A DNA stretch of 64,000 bases from an uncultured Anaerolinea sp. (lineage in GTDB: Bacteria; Chloroflexota; Anaerolineae; Anaerolineales; Anaerolineaceae), in the NCBI GenBank assembly GCA_964411135.1, contig CAYPJS010000078.1, positions 111,495 to 175,494 of the forward strand, read 5' to 3'. Positions within the stretch are counted from its first letter, which is position 1. Each line of letters begins with the position of its first letter. Shown here piece by piece: positions 1 to 8,316 of the stretch. The translations under genes and the position numbers were made by a program. Under the pieces are notes generated by a model. The model did not search any database and was not told where the DNA came from. It saw only the letters and a list, made by a program, of their open reading frames with translations.

Positions 1-600
1 GGCCATAACAATTTCAACAATACTCTCTTCATCCGAGAAGGGTAAACTTTCGCGGTGAAGGATCTTGGCAGCCTGGTCGGCGAAATAATACACCTGAGTC
101 AATCTGTCGCTCAACTGCGTGTGGGAATCAAAACCTAATACCAGGATGCCTACCGGCTCGGTATCGATCCGCATTGGAAATAAAAAAAGGTTGTCGTTCG
201 GGGAAACCCTCAAGACAGCCTGCTGTTCGTAATTTAGAGGTGAAATATGCTGGTCAATGTAGGTAGGTTCATCCGCCAGGATGACACGCTGTAACAGATC
301 CTGGGTGCGATAATGATCGCGGGAAGCCGCGGGACGCAGCGAACCTGTTTTGTACAGTCCGCTGGAGGCCTGAACCCTGAAAGTGCCCCCTTGAGCCAGC
401 ACCAAAATCTGGCACTGCTTTACTTTTAATACTTCGACTACTTTCACAGCCAGTTGATTTAATAAACTAGATGACCCCTCGTAGCTGAACAGGTGCTCGG
501 AAGTCTCGCCAACCTCCACCAAATGTTCAACTGAAGGAGTAAACAGCGGCCGTGATGTCCGCTGTGATTCACCTAATAAACCAGAGCTACCAGATAACAT
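1..600 (-). CDS. GAF-domain signalling protein, N-terminal part only (runs off window start; possibly GAF + HD-GYP)
   Basis: Not in ORF track. Manual translation from ATG at 600 is open to base 1: MLSGSSGLLGESQRTSRPLF...LLNQLAVKVVEVLKVKQCQILVL...NLFLFPMRIDTEPVGILVLG...YFADQAAKILHRESLPFSDEESIVEIVMA. 'LFPMRIDTEPVGILVL...ADQAA' is GAF-like. HD-GYP continuation is inference only. Confidence 0.75.
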   Translation of the reverse strand, partial: MLSGSSGLLGESQRTSRPLFTPSVEHLVEVGETSEHLFSYEGSSSLLNQLAVKVVEVLKVKQCQILVLAQGGTFRVQASSGLYKTGSLRPAASRDHYRTQDLLQRVILADEPTYIDQHISPLNYEQQAVLRVSPNDNLFLFPMRIDTEPVGILVLGFDSHTQLSDRLTQVYYFADQAAKILHRESLPFSDEESIVEIVMA

Positions 601-680: not shown

Positions 681-971
681 TCAGTCGGCGGCGATGGCTG
701 ACATTCCCATTCGGGGAGATTTCATTGCGACATTGAGCTGGGAGGCAAAATCGGCCAGAGAGGTTGCGCGGATAGCGGTCAGGCGATTGCGGTCTTCGTT
801 TTCCAACAGGAATTTCTCGCCGGCAAAACCTACGGACACTGCCATGCCTGGATTGGAGAGCAATAATTGGCGGAATTGTGAGCTGACCACAGCTGCTGAA
901 AGGATCCGGCCATATTCGCGAGTGACATCCTGCTGACGGTTATTCGGACGGGCGAAGATTGTTTGAGACAT
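681..971 (-). CDS. Small protein (96 aa) resembling NHLP-leader (Os1348/Franean1_4349-like) proteins
   Basis: ATG at 971 preceded by AGGAG (minus strand AGGAGAATCAAAATG). 'YGRILSAAVVSSQFRQLLLSNPGMAVSVGFAGEKFLLENEDRNRL' matches the 'II.RA..D.eFR..Ll.nP..al..y.Lt.eE' pattern. Confidence 0.65.
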   Translation of the reverse strand: MSQTIFARPNNRQQDVTREYGRILSAAVVSSQFRQLLLSNPGMAVSVGFAGEKFLLENEDRNRLTAIRATSLADFASQLNVAMKSPRMGMSAIAAD

Positions 972-1557
972 TTTGATTCTCCTGTAAGGTTGAAACGCGC
1001 TCTCTGCCACCGATGGACCACAAAAGCCAGAAGGCACCCAGGGCAATCAGGATGTCGCCGATGGAAAAAGCGACTTTATACGACCAGCCCGCGGGAGTAT
1101 GGATAAAGTCCGAGAGGAACCAAAGGGTGGTGTCCTCTATCAGTAGGACGATATCCTTGCCGTAGCCTAACCGTTCACCCACCTGCCAGGAGTCTGCTGA
1201 ACCTGGCACCAGCCATTCAACGGTTTCGGGACTGATCGGCATCCATCCGCCATTCAAACTGATTACCAGCAGGTTCAGCAGCAAGCCAGTTCCCAGCACC
1301 AAAAAACCAGGGGTTCGGATGTTGGCTGCCACGAAAATGAGGAGCGCAAGTTGTGAAAGTACCAAAATCAATCGGATACCGAGTTCAGGTATGCTTGACC
1401 GCGTCAGTGGAAATGAAAATGCTAACCACTGGGCGGTTATTGCCAAAAATACAAGCCATACGAGTCGCAAAGGGTACGGCTGATAGGACCGTTTGTTTAC
1501 CGCCGCCCGGAGGGTTCCCCCCAGGAGACCGGCGGCGACACCAATAAGTAAAATCAT
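940..1557 (-). CDS. DUF5317-type integral membrane protein; putative signal peptidase II-like aspartic peptidase
   Basis: Multiple hydrophobic helices; motifs LNLLVISLNGGWMP, FLSDFI and FSIGDILIALG characteristic of DUF5317 and alignable to LspA GN..DR..G / VDFI / FNVAD. Confidence 0.75.
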   Translation of the reverse strand: MILLIGVAAGLLGGTLRAAVNKRSYQPYPLRLVWLVFLAITAQWLAFSFPLTRSSIPELGIRLILVLSQLALLIFVAANIRTPGFLVLGTGLLLNLLVISLNGGWMPISPETVEWLVPGSADSWQVGERLGYGKDIVLLIEDTTLWFLSDFIHTPAGWSYKVAFSIGDILIALGAFWLLWSIGGRERVSTLQENQNVSNNLRPSE

Positions 1558-1570
1558 CTAGGCTGGATGA

Positions 1571-1708
1571 TTAGAAACCGATCCCGAAAATCTGGATTTT
1601 TTCGATTACACCACCACCAGCAGAAGGAGCACCAGAGCCGATAACGAACATCGCAACCGTCAGAACGAAGAGGATAATGCGAGCCTTGGAAGCGGATAAT
1701 TTAGCCAT
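1571..1708 (-). CDS. 45-aa signal-peptide-like precursor peptide MAKLSASKARIILFVLTVAMFVIGSGAPSAGGGVIEKIQIFGIGF
   Basis: Below ORF-track length cut-off; translated manually (ATG at 1708, TAA at 1571-1573). RBS-like GGGA upstream (AAAGGGAAATACAAAATG); basic n-region plus 13-residue hydrophobic h-region; ends 13 nt before the DUF5317 start. Confidence 0.8.
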   Translation of the reverse strand: MAKLSASKARIILFVLTVAMFVIGSGAPSAGGGVIEKIQIFGIGF

Positions 1709-1898: not shown

Positions 1899-4800
1899 CT
1901 AAACTTTTGGATTAACCGTCCGCCGTTCGCGCGTGAGGTTATGAAATAATGTAACCGTTCCCGGGGAAGGCTTGGCATCTAATTCTTCCCGGAGAATTTG
2001 TTTCAATGCATCATACGCCTGGACAACGCCGCTGGTATTTCCCTTGGCTGATTGAGCCCGCATCACAAGGCAGACCATAGGTTCATAAGTCGGGTCAAAA
2101 TTGAGCAGGAGCTGTGATGTGGTGATTACCTGGTCCAGTTCGCCTTGCTGGAGCTGCAATTCTGCCAGCTGCATCATGGCATCCATTGCCATCTGATGAT
2201 AACGTTCCCGTTCTGCAGTAACCCAGTGATCGGACAGTTCGGGCAGGAGATAACCTTTATAAAGCTTCACTGCCGAAGTGAGATACTTAATGCGCTCATT
2301 TATTTTTACTGCACGTCGAGCAGCGGCCAGGTGCTGATTGAAATTTTCATAGTCGGCTTCATAATCCATCCCGCGGTTAAACAGGTAGAGTTCATCCTCA
2401 AATAACACTGCGTCTTTGCCAGCTGCGTGCCTCAAGCGGTAGATCGTATTTTTAAAGCGCAGCTTCAACTCGGAGGGAGTTGAATCTGGCCAGAAGATTT
2501 CACCAATTTCTTCTTTGGTCAAACCCTCAGGGTGCATAAGCAAGAGCAGCAGCAAATCCCGAGCATTTTGAGACATCCACTCGGCCCCGGTAATTGTATG
2601 ATCGCCAATTTTGATTTGAATTTTGCCGAATGTCAGGAAGACCAGCTCTGGCGGAGCCAATCTTACGACCTGCGATTGGCGCCGGATCTGCTTTCGGATA
2701 CCAGGCAGTTTTTGTTCGAAAATCGAAACCTGAGATAAAAGGCCTGAAAATTTCATTGACAGATCTTCAGGAATCGATTTTTGATTTAATGCTTTTTCGA
2801 TACTTCTGCTTTCGGACATCAATAAATGGGTTAATTCTGGATTTTGGATAATGGGTGACAGGTTTTCGAGGATGTGTCGGGTCGAGGTGAATTGTCCAGA
2901 TGCGGCGGTTGCCAATGCCGAAAGGATTCTGCATCGGTTTGCTTCAATATGATGGCCTTCCTGAGCAAAAAATTCCATCGCCTTGCCGAATTCAAAAACG
3001 GCAGTTTCAAAATCATTATTTTCAAAAGCAATTTTCCCTCGCAACAATCCGCAAAGGTTGACCTGGTAGGGTGAGTTCGCGTCACTCGCCAGAGTCATTG
3101 CATCTTCAAGGGCTTCTTCAGCTTTCCGGATAGATTTTCGACCCAGGGCGAGGTCAGCATTGGTGTACTGCAGATAAAAGTGGAGGAATTGATCATCAAT
3201 TTGCCGGTCAATTTCAGCAGCCTTGGCGTAGGCATCCTCAGCCTCCCGCATTGATTTCAAATCGCGGAAAAGGTCTCCCAGACTGGTCAGGGCATAGGCT
3301 TCCAGGCGTTGATATCCCCCCAACCGGGCGTATTGGATGGACTGCTCAAACTCGAAAAAAGCTTTCTCATACTCGCCAACCAAAAAATGAACCACCCCGA
3401 CGTTATTGAGTAAATTGGCCTGCCAAACCACATTCCCGGTTGATTGATAATACGCAAGGACATCCAGATATGTTTGCTCAGCTTCCGCGAATCTTCCCAG
3501 GTACTGCAAATCCCCGCCGATGTCCAGGGCAACTTTTGTTGCGCCTTGTTCATGGCCTGCGTTTTGATAAAGGACCCTGGCTTTTTGCAGCCAATCGAGG
3601 GCATCCACCAGTTTCCCCGATTGGTACAAGGCGGATCCTTTCGCGTGGTAGGCACCAGCGAGAAGAGAACTCAATGAGGTCCCATCCGATAAACGGATAG
3701 CTTCCTCTGCATCCTCCAATGCCTGCTGGAGGTTTCCCGCCAAACGGAAAGCGGTAGAACGTCTCACATGGGTAATAACTGCGATTTCATTGTCAGGCCG
3801 CACTTTCAACAAAGCTAGAGCTTTGCCTGTGAACTGAATACCAGCCTTTGGATCACCCAGCATCATCATCACCGCGCCGTAGATGGATAAAATGATGGCG
3901 GATTCATCCACCAATAACGTCGGTAATTTCTCCAACCAGTCATGAACTGTCAGGAGCCGCCCCTGGGTAATCATGAATTGACCTGCTCGCTCGATCAACC
4001 GTGCGGTCAACTCTTTATCACCAATCCGTTCACAGACCTGATAAGCCCGCTCCCAATCCAATTGTTCCTGGAAATACTCAGCCAATTTAAAGAGGATTAA
4101 TCTTGTTTCATCCGGGTAAAGCCGGCTCATCTGTGCCTGTAAAAAGTCTCTGAACAGATGATGGTATCTCAGCCAGATCCGATCCTCGATCACAGGTAAG
4201 GTAAATAGATTATTGCGCTGGACTGTATCCATTAGCATTTGCCAGTCCGCAGTCATATTGAGGGCAGCCCCAATCACCTTTTCGCACCTGTCAACATCGA
4301 ACTCGTCCAATAGCGAAGATCGGAATAGGAAAAGCTTAACCTCATCAGTTTGATGCTCTAAAACCTGCTGGGCTAGGTAATCGTAGAGGCTGACGCCTGC
4401 CACATGTTTTGCCTGGAAACGTGTGGTCACGCGCCCATTCTTAATTTCGGTCGAGAGCACCAGACCTGTGATCCAACCTTCGGTGAGCGCTGCCAGGTTG
4501 GAAGCATCCGCCTCATTCAGGATGATGCGATGGTTCTGCAGATAAAGGGATTGGATTTCTTCCATCCGGAAGGCCAGGTCTTCGAACCCCAATCCGCCCA
4601 CGGTTGATCGGGCTACCAGCAGGGGCATATCGGAAAGCGGAAGCAGCCTTCTGGAAGAGATGACCATGTGGCAGTTTTCATCGACCATCATCAGGAACCG
4701 GTTGATGAAATAGTTGATATCCTGGGTATCTTCTACCAGATGGTAGTCATCCAGGACGAAGAGGAAGTGCTCGGTTATGGTTTCATAAATATCATTGACA

Positions 4801-5162
4801 ACCAGAGACACCAGCGCATCCAGATTTAATCGTGCCTGCGACATTCCCTGCAAGGCTGGCATGCAGCTCTTACCAAATTCAGGGAAGACGGCATTCATGG
4901 ACGCAATGAAATGGGCAATAAAGCGTTGAGGATCTTTGTCCAGGTCATCCAATGCCAGCCAACACACAGGCTGCAAGGTTTGATTCACAAAGTCAACCAG
5001 TAAGGAGGTTTTTCCATACCCGGCCGGCGCCGCAACGATGATCAGGCGGTTATCGATAGACTCTTCAAGCACACTTAACAATCGTGGCCTTGAGAGTAAT
5101 TCTCCTCGCCGGCGAGGGATTATTAATTTGGTTCGTGTGATCGGAATTGAGATATCCATCAT
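1899..5162 (-). CDS. MalT-like STAND NTPase-TPR transcriptional regulator with C-terminal OmpR-type wHTH and BTAD domain
   Basis: N-terminal TKLIIP..R..LLSRPRL; Walker A APAGYGKT; Walker B FVLDDYH; WLRYHHLFRDFL; TPR repeats; 'LTFGKIQI...ARDLLLLLL...IFWPD...FKNTIYRLR' wHTH; 'LYKGYLLPE...WV..ERE...DPTYE' BTAD. Confidence 0.9.
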   Translation of the reverse strand: MMDISIPITRTKLIIPRRRGELLSRPRLLSVLEESIDNRLIIVAAPAGYGKTSLLVDFVNQTLQPVCWLALDDLDKDPQRFIAHFIASMNAVFPEFGKSCMPALQGMSQARLNLDALVSLVVNDIYETITEHFLFVLDDYHLVEDTQDINYFINRFLMMVDENCHMVISSRRLLPLSDMPLLVARSTVGGLGFEDLAFRMEEIQSLYLQNHRIILNEADASNLAALTEGWITGLVLSTEIKNGRVTTRFQAKHVAGVSLYDYLAQQVLEHQTDEVKLFLFRSSLLDEFDVDRCEKVIGAALNMTADWQMLMDTVQRNNLFTLPVIEDRIWLRYHHLFRDFLQAQMSRLYPDETRLILFKLAEYFQEQLDWERAYQVCERIGDKELTARLIERAGQFMITQGRLLTVHDWLEKLPTLLVDESAIILSIYGAVMMMLGDPKAGIQFTGKALALLKVRPDNEIAVITHVRRSTAFRLAGNLQQALEDAEEAIRLSDGTSLSSLLAGAYHAKGSALYQSGKLVDALDWLQKARVLYQNAGHEQGATKVALDIGGDLQYLGRFAEAEQTYLDVLAYYQSTGNVVWQANLLNNVGVVHFLVGEYEKAFFEFEQSIQYARLGGYQRLEAYALTSLGDLFRDLKSMREAEDAYAKAAEIDRQIDDQFLHFYLQYTNADLALGRKSIRKAEEALEDAMTLASDANSPYQVNLCGLLRGKIAFENNDFETAVFEFGKAMEFFAQEGHHIEANRCRILSALATAASGQFTSTRHILENLSPIIQNPELTHLLMSESRSIEKALNQKSIPEDLSMKFSGLLSQVSIFEQKLPGIRKQIRRQSQVVRLAPPELVFLTFGKIQIKIGDHTITGAEWMSQNARDLLLLLLMHPEGLTKEEIGEIFWPDSTPSELKLRFKNTIYRLRHAAGKDAVLFEDELYLFNRGMDYEADYENFNQHLAAARRAVKINERIKYLTSAVKLYKGYLLPELSDHWVTAERERYHQMAMDAMMQLAELQLQQGELDQVITTSQLLLNFDPTYEPMVCLVMRAQSAKGNTSGVVQAYDALKQILREELDAKPSPGTVTLFHNLTRERRTVNPKV

Positions 5163-6453: not shown

Positions 6454-8316
6454 ATGGTAGAAATCAGGCCGATAACCGAGATTCGTCCAAAGATAAGCAG
6501 CGAATTCGACCTGGGTGAGTTCGTTCCCCGCACCGAGGCTATCGCCCATGCTTATAGGCTTGGCAAGCAATTGCATGGCGGTCAATTGCGGATGAGTGGT
6601 GAACCTTACTTCGATACGCACTGCGTCTGGGTGGGCGGTTTTCTGGACAAGCTGGTGCAAAACGAAGCCTGGACTATTGCAGGCTTACTGCATGATAGTG
6701 TTGAAGACAGGGGTGAATCACTCGAAAAAATAAAATCCGCCTTTCCTGGCATGCTTGGAGAAGAGGTGGCGTTTATTGTCGACGGCGTAACCAAGATCAG
6801 CAATCCACGGGATGGACGCTCGCGCGAAATTGAAACCTTGCGGAAAATTGCTCAATTCCGCGATCCAGGTGTATTCCTGGTCAAACTTGCCGACAAGAGT
6901 CACAACTTAATGACCCTGGAACACATGCCGGTTGAAAAGGGCCGCCAGAAGGCGACCGAAGCGATACGGGCTTATGGAAAACTGGCGGGAATCTTAAATT
7001 GCTACCGGTGGCGATGCTGGATCGAGGACCTGGCTTTTCCCTTTGCCGAACCGGAAACCTACCAATATGTCCGGTCGCAGATTGACGCCGACCCTAGGTT
7101 GGATACCCGGTTCATTAACCAGATGATGGAGCAGTTGGGTTCTCTCATGGAGAAGGCGGGCATCGACGGACGGGTTGATCTGGTTGTAAATGGTTATTGG
7201 CAGACCTGGCAGAAATTACGCCGGCTGGCGCGAGCCCGAAAAACCTCGATGAATAGTTTTAAAAACATTAATGACTTGATCAGCTTCCGTATGGTCGTGG
7301 CGAGTGATGATCCTACCCAATGCTACAGCCTGCTCCCGCATGTGAACCGTTACCTTGGCGCCTACCTGGATCAAAACAGCTTTGATGACTACATAGCATG
7401 CCCTCAGAACCGTTACCGGGCCTTGCAAATAACTGCCTGGATCCCTGATCGGGGAGCCGTAGAGGTGGCGATAGCCACTGAAGATATGGAAGGCGAAAAC
7501 AACTGGGGAGTGATCCATGCCATCAAAAGAGGGAAAGATATTTCCTCATATTCTCCAGTGGAAATCCTGACGCCGACAGGCGGCGCCCGATTCTTACCAG
7601 AAGGATCTACTGTCCTGGACGCGGTCGCATCAATCCAGCAAGAACTCCTGCTGGATAAAATCAGTTCGGTCAAAGTCAATGGTAGCCTGGCAAGGTTATC
7701 GGACCGTGTTCACCCTGGAGATGTCGTGGAAGTAGTCACAGGCAGCGGGAGACTGATTCCCAATGAGGAGTGGTTAACTTTTGCCAACCCATCGACGGCG
7801 CGGCTCTTGCGCTCAGTGCTGGTTACAGAAGCGTTAAAAAAATCCGCCGAATCTGGCCGTCAAATAATCAAACCAGCTCTGGCTCAGAGGGGAATCCTTG
7901 CGCTAGAGGACGTACAAGCGCTCGAACCTGACCGCTTTGACAACCTTCTCGAGCAACTCGCCTGCGCTTCACTCGAAGATTTGTATGCATCACTCGGCTC
8001 AGGGGCAGTCCGGTTGATTGATTTGGAAAAAGCACTCGATGGGGCCGGAATCGCTGCCCAAGTATTAAATTGGACTACCGTGAATTTTATCGGCACGCAA
8101 GAATCGAACAGGCCGGGGGTTCTGGCACGTCTGGCTTCTTTAATTTCACAGGTTCAGGGCAACATATTGAGATCTGTAAACAATACTCTGCCGTACGGAG
8201 GCTTCTACCTGCGTTTGGTCATTGGAAATCTGACCGCTGAAAACCGGATCGAACTGCGAAAGGCCTTTGAGGAATCCGGAGTCGAATTGGAATCGTTGGA
8301 TATTGCTGGGGTTTGA
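6454..8316 (+). CDS. Long RelA/SpoT homolog (HD hydrolase, degenerate synthetase, TGS, helical, ACT)
   Basis: HGGQLRMSGEPY, LLHDSVED, VDGVTKI, VKLADKSHN; DLISFR, DDYIACP, EVAIAT; TGS LPEGSTVLD...VKVNG; ACT NRPGVLARL. Confidence 0.92.
   Translation: MVEIRPITEIRPKISSEFDLGEFVPRTEAIAHAYRLGKQLHGGQLRMSGEPYFDTHCVWVGGFLDKLVQNEAWTIAGLLHDSVEDRGESLEKIKSAFPGMLGEEVAFIVDGVTKISNPRDGRSREIETLRKIAQFRDPGVFLVKLADKSHNLMTLEHMPVEKGRQKATEAIRAYGKLAGILNCYRWRCWIEDLAFPFAEPETYQYVRSQIDADPRLDTRFINQMMEQLGSLMEKAGIDGRVDLVVNGYWQTWQKLRRLARARKTSMNSFKNINDLISFRMVVASDDPTQCYSLLPHVNRYLGAYLDQNSFDDYIACPQNRYRALQITAWIPDRGAVEVAIATEDMEGENNWGVIHAIKRGKDISSYSPVEILTPTGGARFLPEGSTVLDAVASIQQELLLDKISSVKVNGSLARLSDRVHPGDVVEVVTGSGRLIPNEEWLTFANPSTARLLRSVLVTEALKKSAESGRQIIKPALAQRGILALEDVQALEPDRFDNLLEQLACASLEDLYASLGSGAVRLIDLEKALDGAGIAAQVLNWTTVNFIGTQESNRPGVLARLASLISQVQGNILRSVNNTLPYGGFYLRLVIGNLTAENRIELRKAFEESGVELESLDIAGV

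Follow-up and report, generated by a model that had tools for sequence, protein, structure and literature searches.

In the staphylococcal agr system, the gene for AgrB, a polytopic membrane endopeptidase of ~190 aa, lies beside genes for a ~45-aa precursor, AgrD, and for a membrane receptor/output protein. The product region of AgrD is variable, and its recognition motif is conserved. The Phr/Rap, RRNPP and enterococcal lipoprotein pheromone systems use precursors of ~40 aa that consist of a signal peptide and a C-terminal product of 5–10 residues; processing is by general signal peptidases, by secreted proteases or by Eep. RRNPP receptors carry TPR repeats. We know of no RRNPP or pheromone system with an HD-GYP partner, and the input signals of HD-GYP enzymes are mostly unknown. 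Here, we describe a locus from an uncultured Anaerolinea sp. that has a small peptide gene and an HD-GYP gene around the gene for a membrane protein of the family DUF5317. The stretch of DNA analyzed, referred to below as the window, is 64,000 nt long (assembly GCA_964411135.1, contig CAYPJS010000078.1, positions 111,495 to 175,494 of the forward strand).

A first-pass annotation of the window, made from the sequence alone, proposed that the DUF5317 protein is an aspartic protease with the fold of signal peptidase II (LspA), and that it processes a non-lipidated substrate, most simply the Cys-free peptide encoded next to it. LspA has four helices, both termini inside, and a beta-cradle (PMC6952399). 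Its catalytic dyad lies near the outer surface and is formed in Staphylococcus aureus by D118 and D136, two of 14 conserved residues, the other 12 being D21, K25, N52, G54, G102, N106, D109, R110, V116, F132, N133 and A135 (PMC6952399). The catalytic residues that the first-pass annotation had named for LspA agree with that description. What is new here is the aspartate pair of DUF5317, together with the links between this family and peptide, HD-GYP and NHLP-like genes. DUF5317 is the membrane component of a cassette that is present in several phyla; we infer catalysis, a substrate, a cleavage site and a signaling role for it.

DUF5317 and its invariant aspartates

The gene, the two aspartate codons and the adjacent peptide gene are located in the window as follows.

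940..1557, minus strand: gene for the DUF5317 protein, 205 aa, ATG start (open reading frame and match to Pfam PF17248)
1108..1110, minus strand: codon of D150, the first invariant Asp, in the L-S-D-F-I motif, beside a short strand in the predicted outside loop (alignments)
1054..1056, minus strand: codon of D168, the second invariant Asp, in the A-F-S-x-G-D motif, in the first turn of the last predicted helix (alignments)
1249..1287, minus strand: codons of G91 to G103, from the predicted outer half of helix 4 into the N-G-G-x-M-P motif (invariant or near-invariant columns)
1571..1708, minus strand: gene for a Cys-free peptide of 45 aa, MAKLSASKARIILFVLTVAMFVIGSGAPSAGGGVIEKIQIFGIGF (called as a gene on public contigs)

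The window gene encodes a genuine DUF5317 protein. Its match to PF17248 is above the gathering score (115.5 bits, cutoff 25, E = 2.8e-33) and covers the whole model, with residues 29–180 on model positions 3–151 of 151; a scan of the NCBIfam library gave no matching model. Both motif stretches that had been quoted in support of the protease proposal are present in this open reading frame, at residues 86–104 and 147–179. The identical protein is encoded on at least 19 public metagenome contigs. Genomes were scanned for relatives with the alignment of the closer family; the closest genomic relatives, with 57–67% identity, belong to Bellilinea and other Anaerolineae (Chloroflexota). Cultured carriers of the locus are Bellilinea caldifistulae GOMI-1 and Ornatilinea apprima P3M-1, and the locus is also present in a genome assigned to Anaerolinea thermophila. 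A tblastn search of plasmids gave no match. In protein libraries, the family comprises 812 clusters by a word-indexed search, and 1,627 cluster representatives at E <= 0.001 by an exhaustive search of 1.84 billion proteins. Our literature searches found no mention of DUF5317 or PF17248, and nothing relevant on HD-GYP proteins with small membrane proteins.

Conservation was assessed in three alignments: 74 relatives with 48–92% identity, 97 sequences reaching down to 31% identity, and 21 sequences of a separately collected distant clade. All members of the first two sets also match PF17248. Invariant residues among the 74 relatives include N79, G91, N95, N102, G104, M106, P107, R129, K134, D135, L148, D150, S165, G167 and D168. 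In the 97-sequence set, which was mostly picked by a motif filter, G91, N95, G104, M106, P107, D150, S165, G167 and D168 are invariant, and N102, invariant in the close and distant sets, is present in >90% of sequences. The distant clade keeps N79, G91, N95, N102, M106, P107, L148, D150, S165, G167 and D168. Hence, D150 and D168 are the sole acidic residues that are invariant in all three alignments; D135 is not universal. Their spacing, said at the outset to be similar to that in LspA, is 18 in 222 of 283 family members and 18–19 in LspA. The Asp motif is absent from four of 114 representatives of at least 170 aa; three of these exceptions have scrambled C termini that resemble frameshifts, and the fourth reads L-D-D. 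There is no invariant His or Cys in the 97-sequence and distant-clade alignments.

An AlphaFold2 model built from the 74-sequence alignment (predicted local distance difference test score (pLDDT) 86.3; predicted template modeling score 0.77) has helices at residues 2–20, 33–47, 58–78, 85–101 and 166–182, and a 64-residue loop, 102–165, with short strands. A second AlphaFold model, restricted to residues 56–190 (helices 3–5 and the loop), has a pLDDT of 88.7. Across the family, segments 21–32, 79–84 and the C-terminal tail are net positive, and loop 102–165 is net negative. By the positive-inside principle, this charge balance supports an N-outside, C-inside topology, which would place loop 102–165, the start of helix 5 and both Asp residues outside. 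Q43, N95, N102, D150 and D168 are predicted to gather at the level of the outer leaflet, and the outside loop is predicted to form a small sheet on the membrane surface.

Coevolution bears on the arrangement of the two aspartates. In a mean-field direct coupling analysis of 410 non-identical family sequences (effective number 303), I152–F164 is the second strongest coupling, at 7.6 standard deviations (sd). Weaker couplings connect the same strands (I152–I166, 3.4 sd; I152–I169, 3.0 sd; H153–K161, 3.7 sd; F151–V162, 3.2 sd), and S149 is coupled to D135 (5.4 sd) and K134 (4.2 sd). The couplings therefore suggest that the strand bearing D150 is paired with the one that continues into helix 5 and D168, with the K134–D135 strand alongside. 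This is indirect support for the closeness of the two Asp residues, on which the first-pass annotation's proposal depended.

A cassette of peptide, HD-GYP and DUF5317 genes

The Cys-free peptide that had been pointed out next to DUF5317 is encoded 13 nt before the DUF5317 start codon. MAKLSASKARIILFVLTVAMFVIGSGAPSAGGGVIEKIQIFGIGF has a basic N terminus, one helix, an invariant G-S-G-A-P boundary and a 17-aa tail. Our neighbor counts for Anaerolineae are drawn from 84 non-redundant loci. Counting downstream copies, at least 76 of 83 loci have a peptide gene, which bears out the view that it is a conserved partner of DUF5317 and not a chance neighbor; the linkage of the two genes is real and old. 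The Anaerolineae peptides share a basic N terminus, a hydrophobic helix and an invariant [GA][SA]-G-A-P at the outer end of the helix, next to which is a variable tail of 5–17 residues. Nine Anaerolineae loci have 2–5 tandem copies; such multiplication is typical of genes for precursor peptides and not of those for fixed subunits. Judged by these sequence features (an invariant boundary, a variable tail and multiple copies in some genomes), the peptide has the anatomy of a precursor.

On the minus strand, the genes are ordered as follows: STAND/TPR/BTAD regulator, peptide, DUF5317, NHLP-like gene and HD-GYP gene. The partners of the peptide and DUF5317 genes are these.

1..600, minus strand: HD-GYP (HD_5/HD) phosphodiesterase gene, N-terminal 200 of 378 codons, running off the window start (HD-GYP domain confirmed)
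681..971, minus strand: gene for an NHLP-clan-like protein, 96 aa (Os1348/Frankia_peptide-like), with its first 32 nt overlapping the 3ʹ end of the DUF5317 gene
1899..5162, minus strand: gene for a MalT/AfsR-like STAND ATPase, 1087 aa, with TPR repeats, winged helix and BTAD (Pfam BTAD, TPR_12 and TPR_MalT; NCBIfam MalT, AfsR partial)

Identical public contigs contain the HD-GYP gene in full (378 aa). Co-translation of the peptide, DUF5317 and NHLP-like genes is probable, because a 13-nt gap separates the first two and the last two overlap by 32 nt. Among the Anaerolineae loci, the NHLP-like gene is directly downstream of DUF5317 in 78/82, the HD-GYP gene is adjacent to DUF5317 in 60/79, and the regulator is upstream in 57/66; the regulator, an upstream peptide, the NHLP-like gene and the HD-GYP gene all surround DUF5317 in 46/64.

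Which of these partners belong to the family as a whole? Among four loci around a relative with ~39% identity to the window protein, HD-GYP is beside DUF5317 in three. A metagenome scan with the distant-clade alignment yielded 80 more loci, of which we counted the 31 with at least 1.2 kb on both sides. HD-GYP is directly adjacent to DUF5317 in 24 of these; as a rule it precedes DUF5317 on the same strand, and the stop codon of the one abuts or overlaps the start codon of the other. In all clades, HD-GYP is adjacent in about 77% of loci. In 14 of the 18 distant loci that could be evaluated, the HD-GYP–DUF5317 pair is immediately preceded by an analogous small gene. The encoded peptide, for example MKWRSLYLRVVYALLTIASLVLASGAGQKWA, has a basic N terminus, a helix, [AS]-G-[AG], three or four further residues and a terminal K/R-W, and genes of this type are found in tandem copies in two loci (L091, 3–299; L104, 2293–2660). 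An NHLP-like gene or regulator is present in just two of the 31 distant loci. The family-wide unit is therefore small peptide, HD-GYP and DUF5317, since distant clades keep the peptide and HD-GYP but rarely the NHLP-like gene or regulator.

The HD-GYP proteins themselves differ between clades. Three from distant loci that we translated have a multi-helix membrane domain of their own, an N-terminal region of ~220 aa with no Pfam match (L091, 558–1838; L094, 3667–5007; L093, 5592–6836). The HD-GYP proteins of Anaerolineae are soluble, and one relative (L010) gives a faint match to GAF.

The 96-aa NHLP-like protein looks like a member of a sister family of the NHLP clan. The window protein matches NF038399 with E = 3e-4 and 20.7 bits, where the cutoff is 40 bits; matches of its relatives (E = 1e-5 to 1e-8, 24–32 bits) are also below the cutoff, and they are consistent and span the full model. 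The leader-like domain is highly conserved, and the C-terminal “core” is variable and often absent, unlike what is expected of a precursor of a ribosomally synthesized and post-translationally modified peptide. In a single database protein (P0143, 304 aa), DUF5317 (residues 1 to ~185) is fused to an NHLP-like domain (220–283). In this arrangement, the NHLP-like domain would face the cytoplasm; the protein may be genuinely fused or may reflect a frameshift between the two overlapping genes.

Five Pelolinea-like loci have a different arrangement. Downstream of DUF5317, 2–5 near-identical peptide genes (ending ...FVLSAGAPNATIGIGK) alternate with 2–3 NHLP-like genes (L055, 7540–8917; L059, 7540–9125; also L078, L081 and L083), and the arrays are followed by genes for ParA-like (AAA_31) and GH3 N-terminal-domain proteins. 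The HD-GYP gene is missing from all five loci, and the regulator from four of them.

Two further genes lie close to the cassette. A gene for a RelA/SpoT-type synthetase/hydrolase of guanosine tetra- and pentaphosphate ((p)ppGpp) is found at 6454–8316 on the plus strand, ~5 kb away, a position kept in the close relatives L002 and L008; two nucleotide second-messenger genes (HD-GYP and RelA/SpoT-type) are thus near neighbors. A conserved 137-aa open reading frame without a Pfam match lies just past the window start (L002, 12243–12656, minus strand); both in the genome of the window and in L008, it converges on the HD-GYP gene.

Peptidase or non-catalytic partner

What is the function of the conserved aspartate pair? 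We tentatively favor the possibility, which we would not yet call probable, that DUF5317 is a maturation peptidase, LspA-like in mechanism, in a cassette for signaling by peptide and cyclic diguanosine monophosphate (c-di-GMP). DUF5317 would be a membrane-embedded hydrolase that uses D150 and D168 like the LspA dyad. Its substrate would be the mini-precursor encoded beside it. Cleavage within the conserved boundary motif, here [GA][SA]GA|P, which would lie at the same membrane depth, would free the short variable tail (4–17 residues family-wide) as an extracellular signal. The response to the tail would run via the HD-GYP enzyme and, in Anaerolineae, also via the regulator. Pro at +1 blocks signal peptidase I; hence, the Pro that follows the A-x-A-like site would account for a dedicated enzyme being needed in Anaerolineae. 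Together, the linkage to the peptide, the shared membrane depth and the precursor anatomy favor a membrane Asp-dyad peptidase for a non-lipidated, signal-like peptide. The broadest form of this proposal is unlikely in its entirety: that DUF5317 is a new family of membrane aspartyl peptidases with LspA-like chemistry and geometry and a fold of its own, that it matures Cys-free mini-precursors to secreted peptides of 4–17 residues, and that these are read by HD-GYP (and by the STAND/TPR regulator in Anaerolineae), such that quorum sensing would be wired to c-di-GMP in Chloroflexota, spore-forming Firmicutes and other phyla.

Both the gene context and the homology searches hold results that weigh against a peptidase. 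Some DUF5317 genes have neither a peptide gene nor an HD-GYP gene nearby (L092; 7/31 distant loci). The tail past the boundary of the distant peptides, 4–6 residues ending K/R-W, also fits a membrane-anchored micro-subunit. Furthermore, the most constant partner across clades is HD-GYP, which points equally to signaling and to proteolysis. Indeed, a non-catalytic role, doubtful in itself, is nearly as likely as the peptidase reading: DUF5317 may be a sensor, transducer or scaffold that works with HD-GYP, its Asp/Asn/Gln cluster binding a ligand, an ion or the peptide tail, and the peptide being a stable one-helix micro-subunit or a ligand. HD-GYP is the most widespread neighbor in both sets of loci (24/31 distant and 60/79 Anaerolineae), the membrane domain of the distant HD-GYP proteins makes a membrane complex plausible, K/R-W is a typical interfacial anchor, and, as described below, we found no peptidase fold or hidden Markov model (HMM) match. 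Against a non-catalytic partner, 2–5 tandem peptide copies, as in the nine loci mentioned above, are unusual for a stoichiometric subunit, a highly variable tail beside an invariant boundary is expected of a cleaved product, and the invariant carboxylate pair with LspA-like spacing and flanks would be a coincidence.

The searches for homology to known peptidases were negative at each level. BLASTP against E. coli LspA gave no usable signal, and neither phmmer nor profile hmmsearch of PDB chains retrieved LspA. In the Pfam scan, Peptidase_A8 gave no match at E <= 10 for the window protein or for any of the 74 relatives; one of the 97 members touches it at E = 0.044, far below the cutoff and among 56 noise families. 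There was no match to any peptidase family at the HMM level. Foldseek searches of the PDB with the full (pLDDT 86) and 56–190 models found no LspA chain at E <= 10, and neither search gave a fold match to other peptidases. The copy of the PDB used for a separate sequence search does contain the LspA chains 5dir, 6ryo and 9emz. All Foldseek matches have template modeling scores (TM-scores) of <=0.3 and are noise (catenin, ribosomal proteins, influenza polymerase, an Mrp subunit). The LspA fold that had been proposed thus finds no support in structural database searches, as distinct from a forced superposition, with two models, and DUF5317 has five predicted helices where LspA has four. Because Foldseek is negative and helix count and orientation differ, DUF5317 is not filed under Peptidase A8. 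From the original interpretation as a whole, the Asp pair and the link to the peptide are retained, and the LspA fold is not.

Profile–profile comparison gave an equivocal signal. With thin profiles, hhalign assigns a probability of 1.7%; this rises to 26.7% (P = 6.9e-4, score 30.1) when a DUF5317 profile of 97 sequences is compared with an LspA profile of 30. In this best alignment, D150 is placed on the first catalytic Asp of LspA and D168 on the second. D168 aligns to LspA F-N-x-A-D in every run, and the stable part of the alignment is A-F-S-x-G-D-x-x-I-A-x-G-A against x-F-N-x-A-D-x-x-I-x-x-G-A. Reversed-profile controls score 21.5 and 23.2; local column shuffling was run 100 times with each of two window sizes, and a single shuffle per size scores as high as the real profile; and DUF5317 ranks first of 78 when compared with 77 real-family decoy profiles from neighbor genes of related loci. 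The likeness of the two profiles, with an empirical p of about 0.01 in one pre-specified comparison, is suggestive. It is below threshold and would not survive database-wide correction. With a profile of equal shallowness, DUF5317 leads the next decoys by a narrow margin (24.7 vs 23.5 and 22.9). When an LspA HMM is run against 907 real proteins of related loci, DUF5317 takes 12 of the top 20 places; by family median it is third of 44 families, which is not discriminating.

Deletion of the loop (105–144 or 105–147, i.e., 40–43 residues) changes the hhalign score to 32.5–33 and the probability to 48–51%, and shifts D150 to the non-catalytic Asp of LspA GNLxDR, such that the pairing of the first Asp is unstable. 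The proposed Asp-to-Asp mapping therefore stands for D168, and holds for D150 in the best alignment but not after loop deletion. The first-pass annotation had also paired LspA GALGNL with LLLNLL of DUF5317 and posited an insertion of ~40 residues after NGG. The GALGNL pairing occurs in no alignment; we rejected it because loop deletion barely raised the score, from 30 to 33, and moved D150 onto the non-catalytic Asp. The insertion is likewise an interpretation and not an outcome of any alignment. Alternative hhalign alignments give no further collinear match for the N-terminal helices. Among the 12 conserved residues of LspA outside the dyad, F132 is the only one with an identical partner in the hhalign alignment (F164); A135 is paired with G167, N133 with S165 and V116 with L148, and D21, K25, N52, G54, D109 and R110 have no collinear partner. 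In all, about 11 of the 14 are without a counterpart in DUF5317. G91-x3-N95 of DUF5317 resembles LspA G102-x3-N106, and the two are aligned in no run.

Could DUF5317 nonetheless be a true LspA homologue that has diverged very far within the Peptidase A8 superfamily? The shared core would be the last helices and the strand-loop-helix with both Asp residues, an extra N-terminal helix would have been gained, and the outside sheet would have moved into the last loop. We consider this quite improbable. It would account for the hhalign probability of 27% (50% without the loop) and its empirical p, for the stable placement of F-S-x-G-D-x-x-I-x-x-G-A on F-N-x-A-D-x-x-I-x-x-G-A, for the spacing of 18 in both proteins, for the setting of the first Asp in a strand and of the second where a helix begins (as the model and coevolution suggest), for the one member that touches Peptidase_A8, and for the position of both Asp residues at the outer surface, as in LspA (PMC6952399). 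It would also have to accommodate the failure of both models to retrieve any LspA chain, five helices with the N terminus outside instead of four with the N terminus inside, the six conserved LspA residues without collinear counterparts, the unstable pairing of the first Asp, and a P value of 7e-4 that fails correction across thousands of families.

The least probable of the readings that we weighed is that DUF5317 is an exporter or flippase for the co-encoded peptides, or that it belongs to some other class of membrane enzyme, for instance as a transferase acting on a lipid or on the tail of the peptide, with the Asp pair binding a substrate or cation. Peptide cassettes usually need an export or modification step, the ParA-like and GH3-like (adenylating) genes follow the peptide array in Pelolinea-like loci, and many invariant polar residues lie in or beside the helices. 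Set against this, a 190-aa protein with five helices and one outside loop is unlike known transporters, the only transporter contact in Foldseek is noise (an Mrp antiporter subunit, E = 8.6, TM-score 0.24), and the peptides, with a basic N terminus and then one helix, look insertable by Sec or YidC alone.

For a family of unknown function, these observations provide a testable hypothesis, that an outer-leaflet Asp pair acts on a co-encoded mini-peptide, and a defined genetic context of small peptide, HD-GYP enzyme and DUF5317. Should the peptidase model be true, DUF5317 would be a new family of membrane proteases and the first dedicated connection from a processed peptide signal to the turnover of c-di-GMP. 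Should the non-catalytic model be true instead, HD-GYP enzymes would have a new membrane partner in DUF5317.

Comparison with known systems

LspA, which is family A8 in MEROPS and PF01252 in Pfam and has the solved structures 5DIR and 6RYO, is the first system to compare. Like LspA, DUF5317 is a small polytopic membrane protein with an Asp pair 18–19 residues apart, predicted to lie at the outer membrane surface, and with a small membrane-surface sheet. A short strand carries the first Asp (V-V-D-F-I in LspA, L-S-D-F-I in DUF5317), and the second is at the N terminus of the last helix (F-N-x-A-D-x-x-I-x-x-G in LspA, F-S-x-G-D-x-x-I-x-x-G in DUF5317). The presumed substrate is a signal-peptide-like helix with a boundary of small residues at the same membrane depth. 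In contrast to LspA, with its four helices and inside N terminus, DUF5317 has five predicted helices and an N terminus predicted to be outside, and its large outside domain is in the last loop, whereas that of LspA is between helices 1 and 2. Substrates of LspA have a lipobox that ends in a diacylglyceryl-cysteine, and globomycin inhibits the enzyme. The peptide beside DUF5317 has no lipobox Cys; the peptides carry [GA][SA]GAP and no conserved Cys at the boundary. Moreover, instead of being a housekeeping gene, DUF5317 is part of a cassette, with HD-GYP as its neighbor. Hence, the resemblance to LspA is limited to the motif of the Asp pair, its spacing, its secondary-structure setting and its membrane depth.

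The GxGD proteases (prepilin peptidase, A24; presenilin and signal peptide peptidase (SPP), A22) also have two membrane Asp residues, the second in a small-x-G-D motif, which is S-x-G-D in DUF5317. Here, S165 is invariant, so the motif is not G-x-G-D, and there is no Y-D or PAL motif. A22 and A24 enzymes have 6–9 helices, and their active sites are either buried or on the cytoplasmic side. The 25 most-matched Pfam families listed for the 74 and for the 97 relatives include neither A22 nor A24, and the sole GxGD contact in Foldseek, SPPL2a (E = 4.7, TM-score 0.19), is noise.

A likeness to the RRNPP systems is the gene for the STAND/TPR/BTAD regulator upstream in the window. RRNPP precursors differ in that they are not known to be cut by a dedicated, co-encoded five-helix protein, and here Pro follows the A-x-A-like site (G-A-P).

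In the agr system, as here, the gene for a polytopic membrane protein lies beside that for a small precursor with a variable product region and a conserved motif. The catalytic His and Cys of AgrB face the cytoplasm, and its product is a thiolactone; in DUF5317, no residue of either type is invariant, and the conserved site is predicted to face outward. AgrB (C75) is not among the Pfam matches listed for the 74 and 97 relatives. The output of agr is a histidine kinase, and the output here would be an HD-GYP phosphodiesterase. If DUF5317 does mature the co-encoded peptide, its role in the cassette would resemble that of AgrB in the processing of AgrD.

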